A DNA stretch of 64,000 bases, from positions 199,282-263,281 of the forward strand of contig JASGJG010000001.1 in the NCBI GenBank assembly GCA_049840835.1, given 5' to 3'. The DNA is from Armatimonas sp. GTDB taxonomy: Bacteria; Armatimonadota; Armatimonadia; Armatimonadales; Armatimonadaceae. A program made the position numbers and the translations under genes. Below the pieces are notes generated by a model. The model had not been told where the DNA came from. It saw only the letters and a list, made by a program, of their open reading frames with translations, and ran no database searches. Shown in pieces: positions 2,796 to 13,308 of the stretch (within the stretch, counting starts at the first letter, position 1; each line of letters opens with the position of its first letter).

Positions 2796-3698
2796 CTACG
2801 CCCCAGTCTGCTCTTCTGCTTCCTCTTGCGCCGCTAGCACCCGCCCCCGCCAGAACGTGAGTGCGTAGGTAATCACGCCACCTAGCGCGCCGACCAGTAT
2901 TGGGGCTGCCCAGAGCGTGCCGTCGAACCGGCGGAACAGCCAGCCGCTCGCGGCACCCTGGATTCCACCAACTATCAGGCAGATAAGGGTAACAAGCAGC
3001 AGAGACTTCTTCCAGGAATCGGGGGAGAAGTGGCTTGCGCCCGCCGCGAAGACACCACTCATGGCGCCGACCATGAGCGCGCTAACAGCTAAATCCGCAC
3101 TCTGAAACGGCAGAAACGCCAGCAGATAACCCGCTGCCCCGAAGGAGAACGGCTCTAGCCAGTGGCCATCGCGCCCGTAGTCTATGGGAAGGCCTTCTGC
3201 GGCGGCTTCCCGGTGGATACGCTCATCATCGCGCGCGAAGTAGGACAGAAACGCGCCCACCGGCGGGCCGACATAGAGAAACACCAGCAGCCATTTCCAG
3301 ACTGGCTGACCCAGAAAGGGATAGAAGGGTTTGAGCGCATAGAACAACGCAACCGCTATAGGCAACCCCCAGGCCGCGCCCACGCCGATATGCCGCCGCA
3401 TCTGGAGCGGCCCCAACAGGCTTTTCTGCACCAGCACCTGAAGGATAGCGGCAATCGCTCCCAGTCCGAAGAGGGTAAATGGAGGCACTGGAGTGCCGAG
3501 AACCAGCGCTCCTATCAATAAGAAGCCGCACCAGCCAATCAGCCCTGTCAGAAAGCTGGAGGGCCATGAGCTACGTCGCACAAACGGGTTGCGCGGAACC
3601 ACCGTCGTATCCGGCATGGCTGTAGTATAACCTGGAACCTTCGGCGATAGAGTATTGCTATGGCGTACTACCCGGACCTCAGCCCATATACCTACCAC
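2796..3698 (-). CDS. polytopic membrane protein, unknown function (true start may be internal Met near 3620)
   Basis: 300-aa ORF, multiple hydrophobic segments; overlaps 3660..4202 plus ORF so N-terminus uncertain. Confidence 0.45.
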   Translation of the reverse strand: MVGIWAEVRVVRHSNTLSPKVPGYTTAMPDTTVVPRNPFVRRSSWPSSFLTGLIGWCGFLLIGALVLGTPVPPFTLFGLGAIAAILQVLVQKSLLGPLQMRRHIGVGAAWGLPIAVALFYALKPFYPFLGQPVWKWLLVFLYVGPPVGAFLSYFARDDERIHREAAAEGLPIDYGRDGHWLEPFSFGAAGYLLAFLPFQSADLAVSALMVGAMSGVFAAGASHFSPDSWKKSLLLVTLICLIVGGIQGAASGWLFRRFDGTLWAAPILVGALGGVITYALTFWRGRVLAAQEEAEEQTGA

Positions 3699-4202
3699 CT
3701 TTTCCCAAGAGACCCATCGGCGATTGAAAAAGCGTATCCGGATGCACGGAATATCGGCTGGCTAGATAATTCGGAGCCATTTCCGCAGTGGGATACGCCG
3801 CCAGATGCGCTGCTATTGAAGCGACTTCTAGCGCATACCATCCTCTTTGTGATGCTGATGCGTGGCTATCATAGATGCCAATGGTGCTCTGGCAATAAGA
3901 ACGAACCTGGGCGTAACCTGCTTATCTATGAGGGGCATGAAATACTCTTAGACAACGGCGAGATTCTGGTAGTCGGCACCGATGGTGTCGCCTTTCGCGC
4001 CCCAGTGATGCTCTATCACTACATCACAGAGCATCGCTACAATCCGCCGCGAGTCTTCTGGGATGCTCTGCAGGTTTCATCACCGGCCCTGGGATTCGAC
4101 CTGGAAGATTCGGAGCGAACCCCTTTTAGCGACCAGGCGTATGAAAAGGGGCGTCAGGAAGAGCGGCGGAAAAGACGCGCTTTTGCACTACAGCTCCTTT
4201 AA
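3660..4202 (+). CDS. hypothetical protein
   Basis: 180-aa ORF in intergenic position between minus-strand genes; Cys-containing CQWCSG motif; no family assignment possible by eye. Confidence 0.35.
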   Translation: MAYYPDLSPYTYHLFPRDPSAIEKAYPDARNIGWLDNSEPFPQWDTPPDALLLKRLLAHTILFVMLMRGYHRCQWCSGNKNEPGRNLLIYEGHEILLDNGEILVVGTDGVAFRAPVMLYHYITEHRYNPPRVFWDALQVSSPALGFDLEDSERTPFSDQAYEKGRQEERRKRRAFALQLL

Positions 4203-5931: not shown

Positions 5932-6384
5932 TCAAGGAGTTCGCCACCGCGCCTGGTTGGATTGGAGCAGCACTTCTACATTTAACTCTATCGAGTTCGG
6001 TCGAGAAAGCTGCTCTGCCCGTGCAAAGATGCGTTGGGTACGTTCTTTCCATTCTGGATGCTCTATCCAGAAACTATCTTCCCGGTGTAGAACATATTCC
6101 AGTAGGTCGCCGGGATATAACTCGGCGTTGATCAGCGGCTGGCGCTCCAGCACTTCCAACGCCAGCGGTATCAGAAACTCTGTTCCGATATTCTGACCCA
6201 ACAGAATACGAAGATCCGCTGGTGTCATCTCGCCTACGGGAACGGTTCGTAGAGCATGGCATCGTCCGACAAGATGAGAGACGTAATCGTCCTCTTCAGG
6301 TGGCTCCCAGACATCGTTTTCTAGTTCGTTGAGGGTTTTTGTGCGGTCAAAAGATATAGGCTCAAGCTGCTCTTGCCTCGGCAT
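5932..6384 (-). CDS. small acidic cytoplasmic hypothetical protein (immunity-protein-like size/composition)
   Basis: 150 aa ORF at edge of low-GC island; no motif recognised. Confidence 0.4.
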   Translation of the reverse strand: MPRQEQLEPISFDRTKTLNELENDVWEPPEEDDYVSHLVGRCHALRTVPVGEMTPADLRILLGQNIGTEFLIPLALEVLERQPLINAELYPGDLLEYVLHREDSFWIEHPEWKERTQRIFARAEQLSRPNSIELNVEVLLQSNQARWRTP

Positions 6385-6763
6385 GGTCGCGATACCACTC
6401 TCGTACTCTCTCTATCATGAAATTCAGCGATTCTGGGGAGATTACTTTCAGAGCATCATTGTGCAGGATGTATCCATGGTCCATCTCGAAGCAAATAAAG
6501 AAGACTGGAAAAGCGAAGCGTTTAAAATGCTCGGTGGATTCTTTTAACTTACTTAATGAGATATCCCCCGCGTGACGAAAACCTTGGACTTCTATGCCAA
6601 AGAGCCGACCAATGTCTTGACTCTTTTCTAGAAGGGAGCAAACGATGTCCGGCCAATTTTTCTCGTCTACATCAATTAAGGAGATTTCATTCTGTCGAAG
6701 TAAGAGAATTCGACCCATATGAAAGGCACGAAGTTTTAAGAGAGATTCCTGTGTGGCTTCCAT
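6362..6763 (-). CDS. hypothetical protein, lower-GC
   Basis: 133 aa ORF, GC ~45%, immediately downstream (same strand) of the AT-rich 584-aa gene. Confidence 0.4.
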   Translation of the reverse strand: MEATQESLLKLRAFHMGRILLLRQNEISLIDVDEKNWPDIVCSLLEKSQDIGRLFGIEVQGFRHAGDISLSKLKESTEHFKRFAFPVFFICFEMDHGYILHNDALKVISPESLNFMIERVREWYRDHAEARAA

Positions 6764-6769
6764 ATGGTT

Positions 6770-8524
6770 TCATTCTTGATCAAAAAATTCAGATTTGATC
6801 GTTTCTATTGATCTTCTAAAATTCTCTAATAAATAATTTCCATCTTTTATTTCTTTCTTTAGATGATTGCTAATATAAAAGTTAATTCCTATTTCGTTAG
6901 ATGTTCTGAAGTGTCTGTACTGAGCAAGAAGATGATTGAATTGTAAGTTTTTGCTAAATGTTGAGTAGGCTTCAATGTCATCAATTGACATAACTGTTAT
7001 GCTATGCACGGGTGGTGTTGATAGCGAATCACTCATTGCGATTTGTTTGCCGAATTCAGACTGGAGATATCCTAAAATTCCCGGTGACATTATGGAAGGA
7101 TCGTAAGTGACTATTACAGGGTATATACCTCTGCATTTTTTAATATCAATCTGGTAGTTTACTATTGGTTGGCCATTGATAAGTTTATTGATGCTGTCTG
7201 ATAGCTGGCTGATGCCTTTTCTTGATTTTGGCTTTCCTATAAATCTGTCTACTACATCTTTATGTAAAATGTTAGGATCTCCTGAATATTTAGCTTGTGT
7301 TGTTAAAATAGAAGCTTTCACCTCTATGAGAATTAAAAATTCTCCATCGTTACATTCTAACAAGATGTCACAAACTTCAGCATTGTCTTTGAATTTTGGA
7401 TTTTTATAAACAATTTGGCTTTTCGATTTTAGATACTGTTCTGAAGTATGTTCTAGTATTGAATATGCGTATTCCTCTACTATTTCCCCGAAAAATGCTC
7501 TGAAATTTACTTTTTCTGGATCAGAGAGGTGGTCATTGATAGTCCAGTAAATTATATCAAAAAATGATTGATATAAAAATCCTCTGTCGTATATAACGTG
7601 GTTTTTATCAATACTTATAACTGGTGTCATTCTGAGGATTGTCATGTCGTTAATTCTAGAATGATGACCTTTAGAAAATAGAAGTGTTGATAAATCGTTT
7701 ATATCTCGTGATATTACTGCTAAACACATCTTGAAAATGTCTTTGGGGGATGTGGTGTTTGTTAAAAACAAATCTTCATTTACAATGAGTGGATCAGATC
7801 TTTCAATGGAGTGAGGGCTATATGATTCTGATCTGACAAATAAAAGAGTAAGGAACTTTATGAAGTATTCAAGACTTACCCCTGTGCATTCTAAAAATGG
7901 TTTTTCAAATGAAACGTAATTGCTTGATTTTTGTAATTTGTTTGGAATATTAAGCCAGATTTCATTGGCGCGTCCTATAACCGGAAGTGCTTGTTGACCA
8001 TAGCTCATTTCGGCGATAGGGATCATCATGGAGGCCAACTGAAACGGTTGCTGTGATGACGGAAGAGAATCATCAATTTTTGAGTTTTGAGAAAATAAAT
8101 CATTAACCATGAATAGTGCTTTGCCAAATTCAGTTAGAAATTGAGAATTGCCTTGAGCGGATGTTACTCTGGTTAGTCCGTTATTTTGAGGACATGATTC
8201 TATAGATAATTTCAAAAATAGTAAAAACTGATGACGATGGAATAATAATAAATCGGTTTTGTTCTGCTTTACAAAAGCGAAAATATTATCCTTGTAATCA
8301 GGAAGAAGAGTGTCAATAAGGCTTTTCTGAAGACGGTTATTTGATATATTGTTGTGATCTGCACCAGTAAGTGCAGGCATTATTACAGAAAGTAAACTAA
8401 TTACTTCGTATATATTGAGCTGGGATAAAATACGGATTATATCACTGTAATTTGCCTTTGATCCAGTAATATCTTCGTGTGTTATGTATGTTCGTATGTA
8501 GTCGTCAGAAGTCATAGGGTACAT
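6770..8524 (-). CDS. large AT-rich-encoded protein with PD-(D/E)xK nuclease-like motif; candidate defence/abortive-infection nuclease
   Basis: 584 aa; coding GC ~33% versus ~60% flanks; motif CDILLE..x10..ILIEVKAS fits D..ExK restriction-endonuclease-like core; AT-rich promoter-like region 8525..8610. Confidence 0.6.
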   Translation of the reverse strand: MYPMTSDDYIRTYITHEDITGSKANYSDIIRILSQLNIYEVISLLSVIMPALTGADHNNISNNRLQKSLIDTLLPDYKDNIFAFVKQNKTDLLLFHRHQFLLFLKLSIESCPQNNGLTRVTSAQGNSQFLTEFGKALFMVNDLFSQNSKIDDSLPSSQQPFQLASMMIPIAEMSYGQQALPVIGRANEIWLNIPNKLQKSSNYVSFEKPFLECTGVSLEYFIKFLTLLFVRSESYSPHSIERSDPLIVNEDLFLTNTTSPKDIFKMCLAVISRDINDLSTLLFSKGHHSRINDMTILRMTPVISIDKNHVIYDRGFLYQSFFDIIYWTINDHLSDPEKVNFRAFFGEIVEEYAYSILEHTSEQYLKSKSQIVYKNPKFKDNAEVCDILLECNDGEFLILIEVKASILTTQAKYSGDPNILHKDVVDRFIGKPKSRKGISQLSDSINKLINGQPIVNYQIDIKKCRGIYPVIVTYDPSIMSPGILGYLQSEFGKQIAMSDSLSTPPVHSITVMSIDDIEAYSTFSKNLQFNHLLAQYRHFRTSNEIGINFYISNHLKKEIKDGNYLLENFRRSIETIKSEFFDQE

Positions 8525-8610
8525 GTTGGCACCATGATTGAGATATTTCTATATCTCGCAGTTGCATATAAATGCTAGATTTTTATCTTTATTAGTATAG
8601 GGAAATCCTA

Positions 8611-11600
8611 TTACTCCACCCAGGCGCGGCGGGGGCCACCACCGAGGACGCGACGGACTTGCTCCACGGCGGCTTCATCAGCATCCATGTGGAATTTGGT
8701 CTGAATAACGTGCTCGCCAGAGGGTGTGTCAGCGTGGAGGAAGACAGACGAACCACCTTCGTGTTGGAGGAGCATTTCTTTTAGCATCTTGAGCATGTTG
8801 CGCACGCCATCGTCGATGCGGATATGGATGGTGCGGGGGCGGGCATCGGCGGACATGGCGTTCTCGACGATGCGCTCTACTTTGTCCGCAATAATTTCCA
8901 CGCTTTTCTCACCGCCGCCACCACCTTCGCCCTCTTCCGAGGACTCCGCGTTCTTTATAATCCGCTCCCGGTGCTGGGCCTTGCCGGAGATCACTACCAC
9001 AGAGTTTTGCAGCAGGAACTTGCCGTACTCGCTGGCGGTGCGTGGGAAGCAGGTAACGGACATCGACCCCACAGCGTCTTCAATCGTCACAAACAACATG
9101 GCGGAGCCGGTCTTGGTGTACTTGGTGCGTACTTCTGTGACCATACCACCGATAGTGATCTGCTGGTTCGGTTGGGTTTCGCCCAGCTCATCCGAGCGAA
9201 TCGCCCGGTGCTTCTTGCGCAGCTCCGGCTCAAAGGGCTTGACCGGGTGCTCGGTGAGGTAGATACCCAGCAGCTCTTTCTCCCAGGCCAGGCGCTCTCC
9301 ACGGGCATAGTCGGTTACCAGGGGAAGGGTTGCCGGGGCAAGGGAGGCAGCATCTTCGCTGGTGGCATCCCCAAAGAGGTTTTCTTGACCGGCTGCTGCA
9401 TCGCGCGCACCACGCTGGGCGGCGGAAACGCAGTCGTCTAAGACCTCTAAGAGCGCCCGGAAATTGGCGTGAATGCTTCGAAAGGCTCCGGCTTTAACCA
9501 GCATTTCAATGACTGACTTGCTGGTAAGCCCCTCGGCAAAGACCCGCAGGCAGAAGTCATCTAAGCTGATAAACGCGCCACCCTTGGCACGTGCGGCCAG
9601 AATCGCGTCTATGGGGGCTTTGCCTACGTTCTTGATAGCGAACAGCCCGAAACGCACCGCACCCACGTACTTCGGCTCGGTCGGCTCCGCGACAGTAAAG
9701 TCACCATCGGAGGCGTTCACATCGGGTGGGAGAACCTGAATACCCAGGCGCTCGCACTCTTCGATGGTGCCGACTACTTTGTCGGTTTTGTCCACATAAG
9801 CCGCCATCAAGGCCGCCAGATACTCGGATGTGTAGTTCGCTTTCAGATACGCAGTCTGATACGCCACCATGGCGTAGCAAGCAGCATGGGCACCGTTGAA
9901 GGCGTACCCGGCGAACGGTTCGATATCGGCGAAGATCTGCTCCGCAACCTTGGCCGTGACCCCGCGCTCCTTTGCGCCCTCCATGAACACGCCCTTCTGC
10001 TTGTCCATGTAGGCTTTCTGCTTCTTACCCATGGCGCGGCGCAGAAGGTCCGCCTGACCGAGCGAGAGGCCACCCACAGCCTGCACGATTTTGAGAACCT
10101 GATCCTGGTAAACAATGACCCCGTAGGTCTCCTCCAGAATCGGCTTGACCAGGTCATGTGCGTAGGTAATCTGGGTCGCGTCGAACTTGGAGCGGATATA
10201 GCGGGGAATATGCGCCAGCGGACCGGGACGGTAGAGCGCCACCATGGCCGAGAGCTCTTTCACGGAGTTTGGCTTTAGCTCCACAACATACTTCTTCATG
10301 CCCGCCGACTCCAGCTGGAACACACCCGTGGTCTCGCCACGACCCAGCATGTCGTAGGCTCTCTTGGCATCCGGATGCGAGTAGTCCAGTGGGATATCCC
10401 AAACATCCACCGTCTCGTTTCGGGTCTTCTGAATAAGCTTCACCGCGCGGGCCAGAATGGACAGGTTGACAAGACCCAGGAAGTCCATCTTGAGCAGCCC
10501 GATCTCCTCCAGCGACGAGTGCGGGTATTGCGTGGCCAGCGAGCCATCGTTGAGCTTGCGGAGTGGGGTGTACTCTACCAGCGGCCTATCCGAGATCATG
10601 ATTCCCGCCGCGTGTACCGACTCAGAGCGAGTGATTCCCTCTATACTCTTCGCGGTGTCTAAAAGCTTGCGGGCCAGTTCCTCGTTCTCGTAGGCGGCTA
10701 CCATTTCCGGGTTGCCGGAGTAGTCTTTCTCCTGCCAGCCGTGCATCGCCTTATCGATAGAGATACCCAGCGGCAACGCCGGAATCATACGGGCGATTCG
10801 GTCGACATCCGGTAGGGGCATAGACAGCGCCCGCCCGGCATCTCTGATTGCGGCCTTGGCACCCAGCGTACCGAACGTGGTGATGTAGCTGACGTTGTCT
10901 TTGCCGTACTGCTGGGTTACGTGCTCGATCACTTCGGCGCGGCGCGTATCCTCGAAGTCCATGTCGATATCGGGCATGGTCACGCGCTCTGGGTTCAAGA
11001 AGCGCTCAAAGGTCAGGCCATACTCCACCGGATCCAGGTCGGTGATCCCTAAGCAGTAGCTGGCCAAGGACCCCGCCGCACTACCGCGCACCCCGAAGAA
11101 AATGCCGGATTGGCGGGCGTGCTGCGCAATGTCTCTGACAATCAGGAAGTACTGCGCGAATCCGGTCTGCTCGATAATGTCCAGTTCGTAGTTCAAGCGG
11201 TCCTTATGCTCACCGGCATGCTCCGGTAAGCGTCGCTCCATTCCCTCCCAGCACAGCCGTGTCATAGTCTTCTGCGCTGTGCTGCCTTCATCCACACCGA
11301 CCACGGGCATGGGGGCGCGGCCTGTCTCGATTTCTAAATTACACTTCTCGGCGATTTCGAGAGTGTTCTCAATCGCATCCGGCGCAAAGTGCTCGAACTC
11401 ACCCATCATCTCGTCGTAGGACTTCAGGTAGAATTCACGCGGCTCGTAGCGCATGCGTTTGGGATCGTTTACCGTGGTGCCGGTCTGAATACAAATAAGC
11501 ACATCGTGCGGGTCGGCATCGGCAGCTTTCAGATAGTGGCTGTCATTGGTGGCCACCATCTTGATGTTCATGGAGCGTGCGATACGCTTGACCTGCTCGT

Positions 11601-12156
11601 TTATGTCCCACTGACCATCGGCATGGTGCCCCTGGACCTCTAAGTAAAAGTCCTCGCCGAACAGCTCCCGGTACCAGGCGGCCACACTCTTGGCTTCCTC
11701 GTACCCCTGCTTCATGATGGTCTGAGCAAGCTCGCCGCCCATACACGCCGAGCAGATAATCAACCCCTCATGGTGCTCTTCTAAAAGCTCTTTATCCACA
11801 CGCGGCTTGTAGTAGAATCCCTCCAGCGACGCCTTGGTCACCAATTTCATCAGGTTCTTATAGCCGGTCTCGTTCTTCGCCAGCGCGACTAAGTGGTGGT
11901 TGCCATCCTTCTTCGGGTCGCGGTCTTTGCGCCCACGGGTGGCCACATACAGTTCACTCCCCACCAGCGGTTTGATACCCGCTTTCTTGGCCGCGTTGTA
12001 GAACTCAAACGCCCCATACATCACCCCATGGTCCGTGAGCGCCAGCGCTGGCATCTCCATCTCCACGGCGTATTTGACCATATCTTTGATCTTGGAAGCG
12101 CCGTCGAGAAGGGAGAACTCCGAGTGGTTGTGGAGATGCACAAAGGGGGTGGGCAT
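8611..12156 (-). CDS. dnaE: DNA polymerase III alpha subunit
   Basis: 1181 aa; PHP domain start MPTPFVHLHNHSEFSLLDGASKI, polymerase core, OB-fold; unmistakable DnaE. Confidence 0.97.
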   Translation of the reverse strand: MPTPFVHLHNHSEFSLLDGASKIKDMVKYAVEMEMPALALTDHGVMYGAFEFYNAAKKAGIKPLVGSELYVATRGRKDRDPKKDGNHHLVALAKNETGYKNLMKLVTKASLEGFYYKPRVDKELLEEHHEGLIICSACMGGELAQTIMKQGYEEAKSVAAWYRELFGEDFYLEVQGHHADGQWDINEQVKRIARSMNIKMVATNDSHYLKAADADPHDVLICIQTGTTVNDPKRMRYEPREFYLKSYDEMMGEFEHFAPDAIENTLEIAEKCNLEIETGRAPMPVVGVDEGSTAQKTMTRLCWEGMERRLPEHAGEHKDRLNYELDIIEQTGFAQYFLIVRDIAQHARQSGIFFGVRGSAAGSLASYCLGITDLDPVEYGLTFERFLNPERVTMPDIDMDFEDTRRAEVIEHVTQQYGKDNVSYITTFGTLGAKAAIRDAGRALSMPLPDVDRIARMIPALPLGISIDKAMHGWQEKDYSGNPEMVAAYENEELARKLLDTAKSIEGITRSESVHAAGIMISDRPLVEYTPLRKLNDGSLATQYPHSSLEEIGLLKMDFLGLVNLSILARAVKLIQKTRNETVDVWDIPLDYSHPDAKRAYDMLGRGETTGVFQLESAGMKKYVVELKPNSVKELSAMVALYRPGPLAHIPRYIRSKFDATQITYAHDLVKPILEETYGVIVYQDQVLKIVQAVGGLSLGQADLLRRAMGKKQKAYMDKQKGVFMEGAKERGVTAKVAEQIFADIEPFAGYAFNGAHAACYAMVAYQTAYLKANYTSEYLAALMAAYVDKTDKVVGTIEECERLGIQVLPPDVNASDGDFTVAEPTEPKYVGAVRFGLFAIKNVGKAPIDAILAARAKGGAFISLDDFCLRVFAEGLTSKSVIEMLVKAGAFRSIHANFRALLEVLDDCVSAAQRGARDAAAGQENLFGDATSEDAASLAPATLPLVTDYARGERLAWEKELLGIYLTEHPVKPFEPELRKKHRAIRSDELGETQPNQQITIGGMVTEVRTKYTKTGSAMLFVTIEDAVGSMSVTCFPRTASEYGKFLLQNSVVVISGKAQHRERIIKNAESSEEGEGGGGGEKSVEIIADKVERIVENAMSADARPRTIHIRIDDGVRNMLKMLKEMLLQHEGGSSVFLHADTPSGEHVIQTKFHMDADEAAVEQVRRVLGGGPRRAWVE

Positions 12157-12357: not shown

Positions 12358-13308
12358 ATGAACACAGAAAACTCCATTACCCTTGAGCAGATTGCGGAAG
12401 TATTCCGGGCATATGCTCTGGCAGAAAATCCGTCTATCACCCGAATCACCTCAGGATTTACCAATGAAGTGTATGAGGTAGATGGCTACATCCTAAAGGT
12501 CTGCGTCAATCTGCTCAATGAGCCTAATTTCGAGCGGGAAGTTTTTCTGTACCAGATGCTGCGGGGCACAGTCCTCACACCAGAGCCCATTGTTGTTGAT
12601 ATCTCTAAGAGTCTCCTGAGTAAGTTCTATATGATCTACCCTAAAATCGAAGGGGAATCAGCGGGGCAGCGCTGGCACGGGTTGGATAATATGGCCCGAC
12701 GAGAGTTCGTAAGGGATTTATGCCAGCAGCTACAGCGAATGGATAACTTTCCCCTGAAAAGCTACACGGAGCGCTTTGGGCTAAATCTCAATCTGATATG
12801 GCAAGAAGAGGTTGTCAACGGGCTGTTTCGTTCGCTGGCAAAAGTCCAAGAGCAAGAGATTCCTATTCTGCCAGAAACCACTGTCCAGGCGATTGATACC
12901 TATATCCAAAAGACAGCCTATGTGCTGGAACCACAGAAACTTGGTCTGGTGTTCTGGGATGTGCAGTGGGACAACATGCTCATTGATAACCAGAATAGGC
13001 TAGCAGCCCTGATTGATTTCGAGGGCATCAGCATTGTCTCCATTGACTATCGTCTGTCCATCATCCGCGCGATGATGGAGCGACCGCATATTTTTCTGAG
13101 TAGTGAACTGGAGCCTTGTGCAAATACAGAAGACTACAAGCACCTTATGGAGTGGTACCGGGAGTTCTACCCGGAACTGTTTGACTTTCCTGAACTCGAA
13201 AAACGGGTGAGTCTCTATGAGTTGGGCGATGTGCTGGACCATTTGCCCGATTGGCCGAAAGCTCGGCAGCTTCATGAGCGATTAGAGAAAATTCTTAGTA
13301 CCTACTGA
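12358..13308 (+). CDS. phosphotransferase enzyme family protein (aminoglycoside/choline-kinase-like)
   Basis: 316 aa; catalytic-loop-like WDVQWDNMLID and IDFEG (DFG-like) motifs of APH/CHK kinases. Confidence 0.65.
   Translation: MNTENSITLEQIAEVFRAYALAENPSITRITSGFTNEVYEVDGYILKVCVNLLNEPNFEREVFLYQMLRGTVLTPEPIVVDISKSLLSKFYMIYPKIEGESAGQRWHGLDNMARREFVRDLCQQLQRMDNFPLKSYTERFGLNLNLIWQEEVVNGLFRSLAKVQEQEIPILPETTVQAIDTYIQKTAYVLEPQKLGLVFWDVQWDNMLIDNQNRLAALIDFEGISIVSIDYRLSIIRAMMERPHIFLSSELEPCANTEDYKHLMEWYREFYPELFDFPELEKRVSLYELGDVLDHLPDWPKARQLHERLEKILSTY

Follow-up and report, generated by a model that had tools for sequence, protein, structure and literature searches.

The window, by which we mean the whole 64-kb stretch of DNA that was analysed, carries a gene for a protein of 584 aa on the minus strand, immediately downstream of dnaE. 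The same gene is recorded at NCBI as QM758_00900 (Armatimonas sp. MAG), where it is called from Met4 as a 581-aa protein of identical sequence and is annotated as hypothetical. The genes and spacer of the locus, listed from dnaE onward, are as follows.

8611..12156, minus strand: dnaE (DNA polymerase III alpha, 1181 aa), the conserved left flank of a variable slot
8525..8610, minus strand: AT-rich spacer of 86 nt from the dnaE stop to the start of the nuclease gene, assigned to the swapped cassette
6770..8524, minus strand: predicted nuclease gene (GapS1-like, 584 aa), an ORF with an ATG start
6362..6763, minus strand: p133 (133 aa), forming the conserved right flank in loci L025 and L003
5932..6384, minus strand: CdiI_3, an orphan CDI immunity gene and resident neighbour (Pfam PF18616, E = 4.3e-27)

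Composition and boundaries of the segment downstream of dnaE

When GC content was computed in 400-nt windows, it fell from 0.58 to 0.60 in dnaE to 0.31 to 0.37 over approximately 6600-8600, then rose to 0.41 to 0.47 and finally to ∼0.52. This profile reproduces the drop from ∼60% to ∼33%, with an intermediate zone beside it, on which the original prediction was built. The individual genes follow the same course, with a GC of 0.581 (GC3, 0.734) in dnaE, 0.314 in the spacer, 0.333 (GC3, 0.284) in the nuclease gene, 0.438 (GC3, 0.440) in p133, and 0.517 (GC3, 0.510) in cdiI_3. The nuclease region is the sole part of the 64-kb window (overall GC, 0.563) to fall below 45% GC; every other 1-kb bin is at least 0.468.

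Pfam searches detected no integrase or transposase domains in the neighboring ORFs, and no tRNA lies within 54 kb of the nuclease gene, the window's only tRNAs being located at 63 kb, so that the integrase- and tRNA-free insertion described originally is confirmed. No convincing flanking direct repeat, target-site duplication, or terminal repeat was found around the cassette. With no integrase, no tRNA or attachment site, and no flanking direct repeats, the segment does not classify as a site-specific-recombinase island. An 18-nt imperfect inverted repeat located within the coding ends of dnaE and cdiI is not retained in the related locus L001 and was judged to be probably a chance occurrence. 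The 86-nt spacer includes a perfect 7+7 palindrome (GAGATAT-AGAA-ATATCTC) at 8540..8557. Neither a consensus promoter nor a terminator was called in 8525..8610, and expression of the nuclease gene may therefore rely on read-through from dnaE.

Genome contigs were scanned with dnaE, which yielded eight loci from Armatimonas/Armatimonadota and a distant one from Peregrinibacteria. The window's dnaE matches over its full length at 81 to 91% amino acid identity in three Armatimonas/Armatimonadota MAG loci (L001-L003), and partial or interrupted matches are also present in L004-L007, L009, and L025. The 584-aa nuclease gene was absent from all related dnaE loci examined, where the following genes were found after dnaE instead.

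L001 (dnaE 91% identical, aa): a cdiI_3 homolog (64% aa) starting 3 nt after dnaE, with neither p133 nor the nuclease gene
L002: a 302-aa Mrr (Mrr_N plus Mrr_cat; GC, 0.48; Mrr_cat match, E = 4e-35)
L003: a 171-aa ORF with a weak DUF4365 match, followed by a p133 homolog (36% aa)
L006: a small ORF that weakly matches an antitoxin, with a PIN gene after it (VapBC-like)
L025 (a 1.7-kb Logan contig): the dnaE C terminus (93% aa), Mrr, p133 (69%), and cdiI_3 (85%)

The nuclease gene is accessory, and the slot after dnaE is variable, being occupied by Mrr, a VapBC-like pair, a small ORF, or nothing. The accessory and horizontally acquired character claimed at the outset holds on both counts, as no related dnaE locus has the gene at this position and its GC content is foreign. 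In L025, L001, L002, L003, and L006 alike, the sequence ceases to match the window at the dnaE stop codon. The L025 contig is informative for the opposite border as well: in the DNA alignment, homology stops exactly at the dnaE stop and restarts inside the N terminus of p133, at ∼6745. The Mrr gene that fills the interval in L025 matches Mrr_cat and is 83% identical to the Mrr of L002, and it is frameshifted.

From these breakpoints, the exchanged cassette is placed at ∼6764..8610 and comprises the nuclease gene and its 86-nt AT-rich leader, leaving p133 and cdiI_3 outside it as older residents. Of the bounds first proposed, 6385 to 8610, the lower one is refined: 6385 is a border relative to L001 only, whereas the comparison with L025 gives ∼6764..8610. 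The simplest explanation for this pattern would be that cassettes are exchanged through homologous recombination within the conserved flanking genes.

The p133 gene has two homologs only, one in L025 (69% aa, directly after Mrr) and one in L003 (36%, after the 171-aa ORF). It has no family match in Pfam, PADLOC, NCBIfam, or PHROGs, and its AlphaFold2 model was unusable for searching (pLDDT, 41.7). The difference in GC between p133 and the nuclease gene (0.438 versus 0.333) indicates that the two were not acquired together. It is a lineage-restricted gene that lies outside the AT-rich cassette.

Family and predicted fold of the 584-aa protein

The only significant family match of the 584-aa protein is to the NCBIfam model NF047931 (GapS1), with an E-value of 2.1e-21 and a score of 76.4 bits, against a curated cutoff of 320 bits for membership in the GapS1 subfamily. 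Residues 202-519 align to profile positions 123-419 of 455, including the catalytic motif; the first ∼200 residues are outside the match, and the protein is ∼130 aa longer. Scans against Pfam, PADLOC (2023), and PHROGs returned nothing significant, and neither the Shedu (DUF4263) nor the Mrr_cat (PF04471) model matched. Among PDB sequences, phmmer and profile searches retrieved nothing beyond spurious matches to TPRs and a weak match to Can2; in the latter, obtained with the profile, the GxxFExY, D, and ExK motifs are aligned. The candidate families suggested originally (DUF4263, AbiJ, NucS, and RES) likewise gave no profile matches, with none in PADLOC (2023), and identification as Shedu, AbiJ, NucS, or RES was rejected on that basis.

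Relatives were sought in large sequence collections. A word-indexed protein search recovered the protein itself and three distant matches only, even with a 41-sequence alignment as the query. When 1.84 billion cluster representatives were searched exhaustively with phmmer, 762 sequences matched at E ≤ 1e-3, of which 319 also passed 1e-10 and 28 passed 1e-30. These relatives are mostly 560 to 610 aa long and can be aligned end to end, and the closest is only ∼32% identical. Those that were looked up are metagenomic singletons, either named "hypothetical protein" or without a name. The GapS1 model was matched by 40/41 members of the clade (best E-value, 1e-22), and ten related cluster representatives of shorter length did not exceed 79 bits on it, none reaching the cutoff. 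Because the GapS1 match is far below the cutoff, sequence comparison places the protein in what appears to be a distinct, longer, and unnamed sister clade of GapS1 (∼580 aa) rather than in GapS1 proper.

A confident AlphaFold2 model built from the 41-member alignment (pLDDT, 89.4; pTM, 0.91) divides the protein into two parts, which map to the DNA together with the catalytic codons as listed here.

7625..8524, minus strand: N-terminal all-helical domain, approximately residues 1-300 (AlphaFold2 and DSSP: helices only, residues 16-299)
6965..7522, minus strand: predicted C-terminal PD-(D/E)xK (restriction-endonuclease-fold) domain, approximately residues 335-520
7369..7367, minus strand: catalytic-motif codon of D386
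7324..7322, minus strand: catalytic-motif codon of E401
7318..7316, minus strand: catalytic-motif codon of K403

In the model, residues ∼335-520 form an alpha-beta-beta-beta-alpha-beta core, which is that of the PD-(D/E)xK superfamily. Helix alpha1 bears G346, E350, and Y352, D386 starts beta2, E401-V-K403 lies on beta3, and Q440 is located on the next helix. The motif as read from the sequence is C385-D386-I-L-L-E ... I-L-I-E401-V-K403, and the D..ExK core of a 584-aa protein, as originally described, was thereby located codon by codon. Across the 41-member alignment, R185, P301, G346, D386, K403, Q440, and E518 are invariant, and E401, Y352, D293, D313, F95, H96, and Q99 are conserved in ≥90% of the members. 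The ORF is intact, and every family-invariant residue is present. The model thus shows a nuclease fold in which the conserved catalytic motif is intact; the nuclease fold named earlier as a point to check is supported by the restriction-enzyme fold of the AlphaFold2 model together with the GapS1 profile match. The N-terminal domain has conserved positions of its own (F95-H96-x-x-Q99, D142, and R185) and no Pfam or PDB sequence match, and it is probably the sensor or regulatory part of the protein.

Comparison with known nucleases and contexts of the homologs

GapS1 is a single protein that loses defence upon the substitution D313A or K328A; its trigger is the T7 capsid protein Gp10, the outcome is dormancy rather than death, and E. 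coli homologs with 24 to 29% identity to GapS1 are also protective (bioRxiv 10.1101/2023.03.28.534373). The protein described here resembles GapS1 in being a single protein whose N-terminal part is helical and whose C-terminal PD-(D/E)xK domain has conserved D and K residues, and in being encoded by a horizontally mobile, solitary gene that is found in islands without a conserved partner. Judged from profile coordinates only, D386 and K403 would correspond to D313 and K328 of GapS1. Unlike GapS1 (∼455 aa), it has 584 aa, is not located in a GMT island, and is hosted by an Armatimonadota MAG.

The nearest structure is Upx (PDB 9wuf), a 1212-aa single-protein anti-phage nuclease that is activated by a phage protein and acts as a 3′-5′ single-stranded DNA exonuclease (PMC13099982). 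Its C-terminal domain consists of a long helical region followed by a core with D1161, E1176, and K1178 (PMC13099982), and the D-to-K spacing of 17 in the present protein (D386/K403) equals that of Upx D1161/K1178. Foldseek aligned the whole protein to Upx (566 columns; E = 3.3e-5) with a low overall TM-score of 0.27. With 584 aa and a single core, the protein departs from the three-domain (∼1200-aa) organization of Upx and resembles the C-terminal domain only; the extra N-terminal nuclease domain and the middle regulatory domain of Upx are both missing. No sequence similarity to Upx was detectable by profile against PDB sequences, where the weak Can2 match was the sole result of the profile search, so that the relationship to Upx is structural only. 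The chemistry of Upx is not confidently transferable to the protein analyzed here.

Other nucleases share fewer features. Shedu (SduA, DUF4263), likewise a defence encoded by one gene, couples a variable N-terminal domain to a PD-(D/E)xK effector, but the DUF4263 domain is missing here. In contrast to Can2/Card1, FokI, and BspD6I, the protein has neither a CARF nor a DNA-recognition domain and no methyltransferase partner, and, unlike for Can2/Card1, no cyclic-oligoadenylate system is encoded nearby. The cleavage domains of the type IIS enzymes FokI and BspD6I are structural matches, and Mrr occupies the same slot in relatives of the window. Both observations fit a solitary restriction enzyme, either modification-dependent (type IV) or type IIS-like, that would bind incoming DNA through its N-terminal part and cut it directly, with neither a phage-protein trigger nor dormancy involved. 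No restriction-enzyme family was matched, however, and we regard this explanation as rather unlikely, though it is the most credible of the alternatives.

The genomic contexts of the homologs were analyzed as a further source of evidence. The homologs are solitary: neighbors differ among all loci examined, and there is no conserved partner gene. One homolog (L010, P0152) comes after a DUF1016 gene and a type III restriction-modification system, and rve, HEPN, and ArdC genes are present in the same region; a second (L011-14, P0153) is located in an RteC/HTH_17 conjugative-transposon-like region; and another (L015, P0002) lies between an HTH_17 gene and an SLFN_AlbA_2 gene. Two more adjoin, respectively, an MmeI-like restriction-modification enzyme and two SLFN_AlbA_2 genes (L027, P0005) and an SLFN_AlbA_2/HATPase_c_4 gene with a phage integrase close by (L028, P0006). 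No neighbor is common to L018-L024, and several of the metagenomic loci have ordinary metabolic genes. The GC content of the family gene is below that of its flanks in 9/10 loci. No family match was found by tblastn in plasmid and phage collections, no significant viral structure match was found in BFVD, and a single contig matched in IMG/VR. The family is, therefore, all but missing from the phage, plasmid, and viral-contig collections searched.

Proposed function and its implications

The foreign composition of the gene, its presence/absence polymorphism, and the defence-associated and mobile neighborhoods of its homologs are direct observations. Considered together with the homology to the experimentally validated GapS1, the defence-island contexts favor a single-gene defence. 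The segment ∼6764..8610 is probably a horizontally acquired single-gene anti-phage cassette, the product of which is predicted to be a phage-triggered, stand-alone GapS1-type nuclease. We infer the trigger, the substrate, and the dormancy outcome, drawing on the homology to GapS1 and on the protein's architecture for the phage-triggered function. The helical N-terminal half of ∼300 aa would keep the enzyme inactive and recognize a phage-derived trigger. Once triggered, the C-terminal PD-(D/E)xK domain (E350, D386, E401, K403, and Q440) would bind Mg2+ and cut nucleic acid. Phage replication would then be halted at the price of host growth arrest, after the model of the capsid-protein-triggered dormancy of GapS1. 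The original prediction of a Shedu- or Abi-like single-gene defence nuclease survives in its reference to a defence nuclease, through the GapS1 homology and the genomic contexts, and fails for Shedu and AbiJ, neither of which gave a profile match.

Under a different explanation, the nuclease and p133 would form a two-gene module, toxin-immunity or effector-regulator, in which p133 neutralizes the nuclease. The arrangement of the genes is suggestive of such a module: p133 starts 6 nt downstream of the nuclease stop and overlaps cdiI_3, itself an immunity gene, by 23 nt, and p133 follows a nuclease gene in 3/3 loci that have it. However, the p133 of L025 is 69% identical while lying beside an unrelated Mrr, which indicates that p133 and the nuclease do not vary together. 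No p133 homolog occurs at the other GapS1-like loci (L010-L028), the 144-aa ORF downstream of the gene in L010 being unrelated, and the GC contents of the two genes differ, as described above. A module of this kind is, accordingly, very improbable. Least plausible of all is a housekeeping or repair nuclease functionally tied to dnaE, or a decaying, functionless remnant, since the position of the gene on the dnaE strand, immediately downstream and with no terminator called between, is outweighed by its absence from every related dnaE locus, its extremely foreign composition, an intact ORF with all family-invariant residues, and the scattering of the family over unrelated, often mobile contexts.

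The anti-phage nuclease reading, which we prefer, bears on how the protein should be named. Because its score is below the threshold of the GapS1 subfamily and its length is different, the protein is not filed as GapS1; the fitting label is "GapS1-like, resembling Upx C-terminal domain," not Shedu and not GapS1 proper. A broader scenario is offered tentatively, as a joint proposal that we consider less likely to be right than wrong. The ∼580-aa clade may be an independent single-protein defence family, with its own trigger and substrate, that links GapS1 and the Upx C-terminal module as one ancient unit of a helical sensor and a terminal restriction fold. At the same time, the 3′ end of the Armatimonas dnaE gene may be an integrase-free hotspot at which unrelated nuclease or toxin cassettes (GapS1-like, Mrr, and VapBC) are swapped by recombination in the flanks, with p133 possibly aiding the exchange or regulating the upstream nuclease.

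These results do not overturn current ideas and constitute an incremental addition, with nothing conceptually unexpected. They would extend GapS1-type single-protein nuclease defences to the poorly studied phylum Armatimonadota and to a clade of longer proteins that has no name and includes hundreds of metagenomic sequences, every one of them annotated as hypothetical. They also help to connect, at the structural level, GapS1, for which no structure has been solved, with Upx, whose structure became available recently. As a natural case of cassette exchange at a hotspot flanked by a core gene, the locus is a clean one, with Mrr, the GapS1-like gene, VapBC, or nothing in the slot, and the dnaE hotspot could be mined for more defence genes in this lineage.

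A lineage-restricted gene beside the dnaE slot

In the window, in L025, and in L003, the gene occupying the variable slot 3′ of dnaE is followed directly by p133, a lineage-restricted gene encoding 133 aa.

Window 6362..6763, (-) strand: p133, 3′ of the GapS1-like nuclease gene
L025:1043-1450: p133, 3′ of mrr
L003:5437-5844: p133, 3′ of a 171-aa ORF

The p133 sequence carries a WPD…E-V-(K/Q) pattern reminiscent of a small PD-ExK domain; the lysine of this pattern is retained in P0155, with glutamine in its place in the window copy. Family searches returned no match for p133, whose AF2 model was too low in confidence to be of use (pLDDT of 41.7).

Composition and gene content on either side of dnaE

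Downstream of p133, the window has an intermediate GC content (0.50 to 0.53) from 3.6 to 6.4 kb, a zone that also holds a PD40-like gene and another gene whose product appears to have a signal peptide.

5932..6384, (-) strand: cdiI_3, an orphan CDI immunity gene (CdiI_3 match, E = 4e-27)
3660..4202, (+) strand: DUF7919 gene (DUF7919 match, E = 1e-30)
12358..13308, (+) strand: APH phosphotransferase family gene, upstream of dnaE

A CdiA toxin gene was not found near the window cdiI_3, which is the only gene of the zone recovered in related dnaE loci, the others being absent there. The APH gene likewise lacks a counterpart in the related dnaE loci and has a below-average GC content (0.48); therefore, the dnaE flanks appear to be variable on both sides in this lineage. 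The dnaE gene itself carries a lower-GC (0.50), in-frame insert of approximately 970 nt in the relative Armatimonas sp. GL72_DN_metabinner_2 (L006:12287-13258), which is probably a DnaE intein, as suggested by a match to the Intein_splicing domain that falls just under the cutoff (E = 1e-8; 35.6 versus 35.8 bits). The window dnaE has no such insert.

Repeats around the nuclease gene

5944-5961 and 8615-8632: 18-nt inverted repeat (16/18 complementary), one arm in the 3′-terminal coding sequence of cdiI_3 and the other in that of dnaE
8540..8557: GAGATAT-AGAA-ATATCTC, a perfect palindrome (7-bp arms, 4-nt loop) located 16 nt before the start codon of the nuclease gene, within the AT-rich leader

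The arms of the inverted repeat flank the nuclease–p133–cdiI block. The repeat is not kept in the related locus L001 and probably arose by chance, the rough expectation being 0.1 to 0.5 per region. The leader palindrome could serve as an operator or form a weak hairpin.

Schlafen-type neighbors of GapS1-like genes

SLFN_AlbA_2 (Schlafen/AlbA_2) genes adjoin GapS1-like genes in three independent loci (L015, L027, and L028, encoding the homologs P0002, P0005, and P0006, respectively). The two may constitute a co-occurring defense pair or may merely be common island content.
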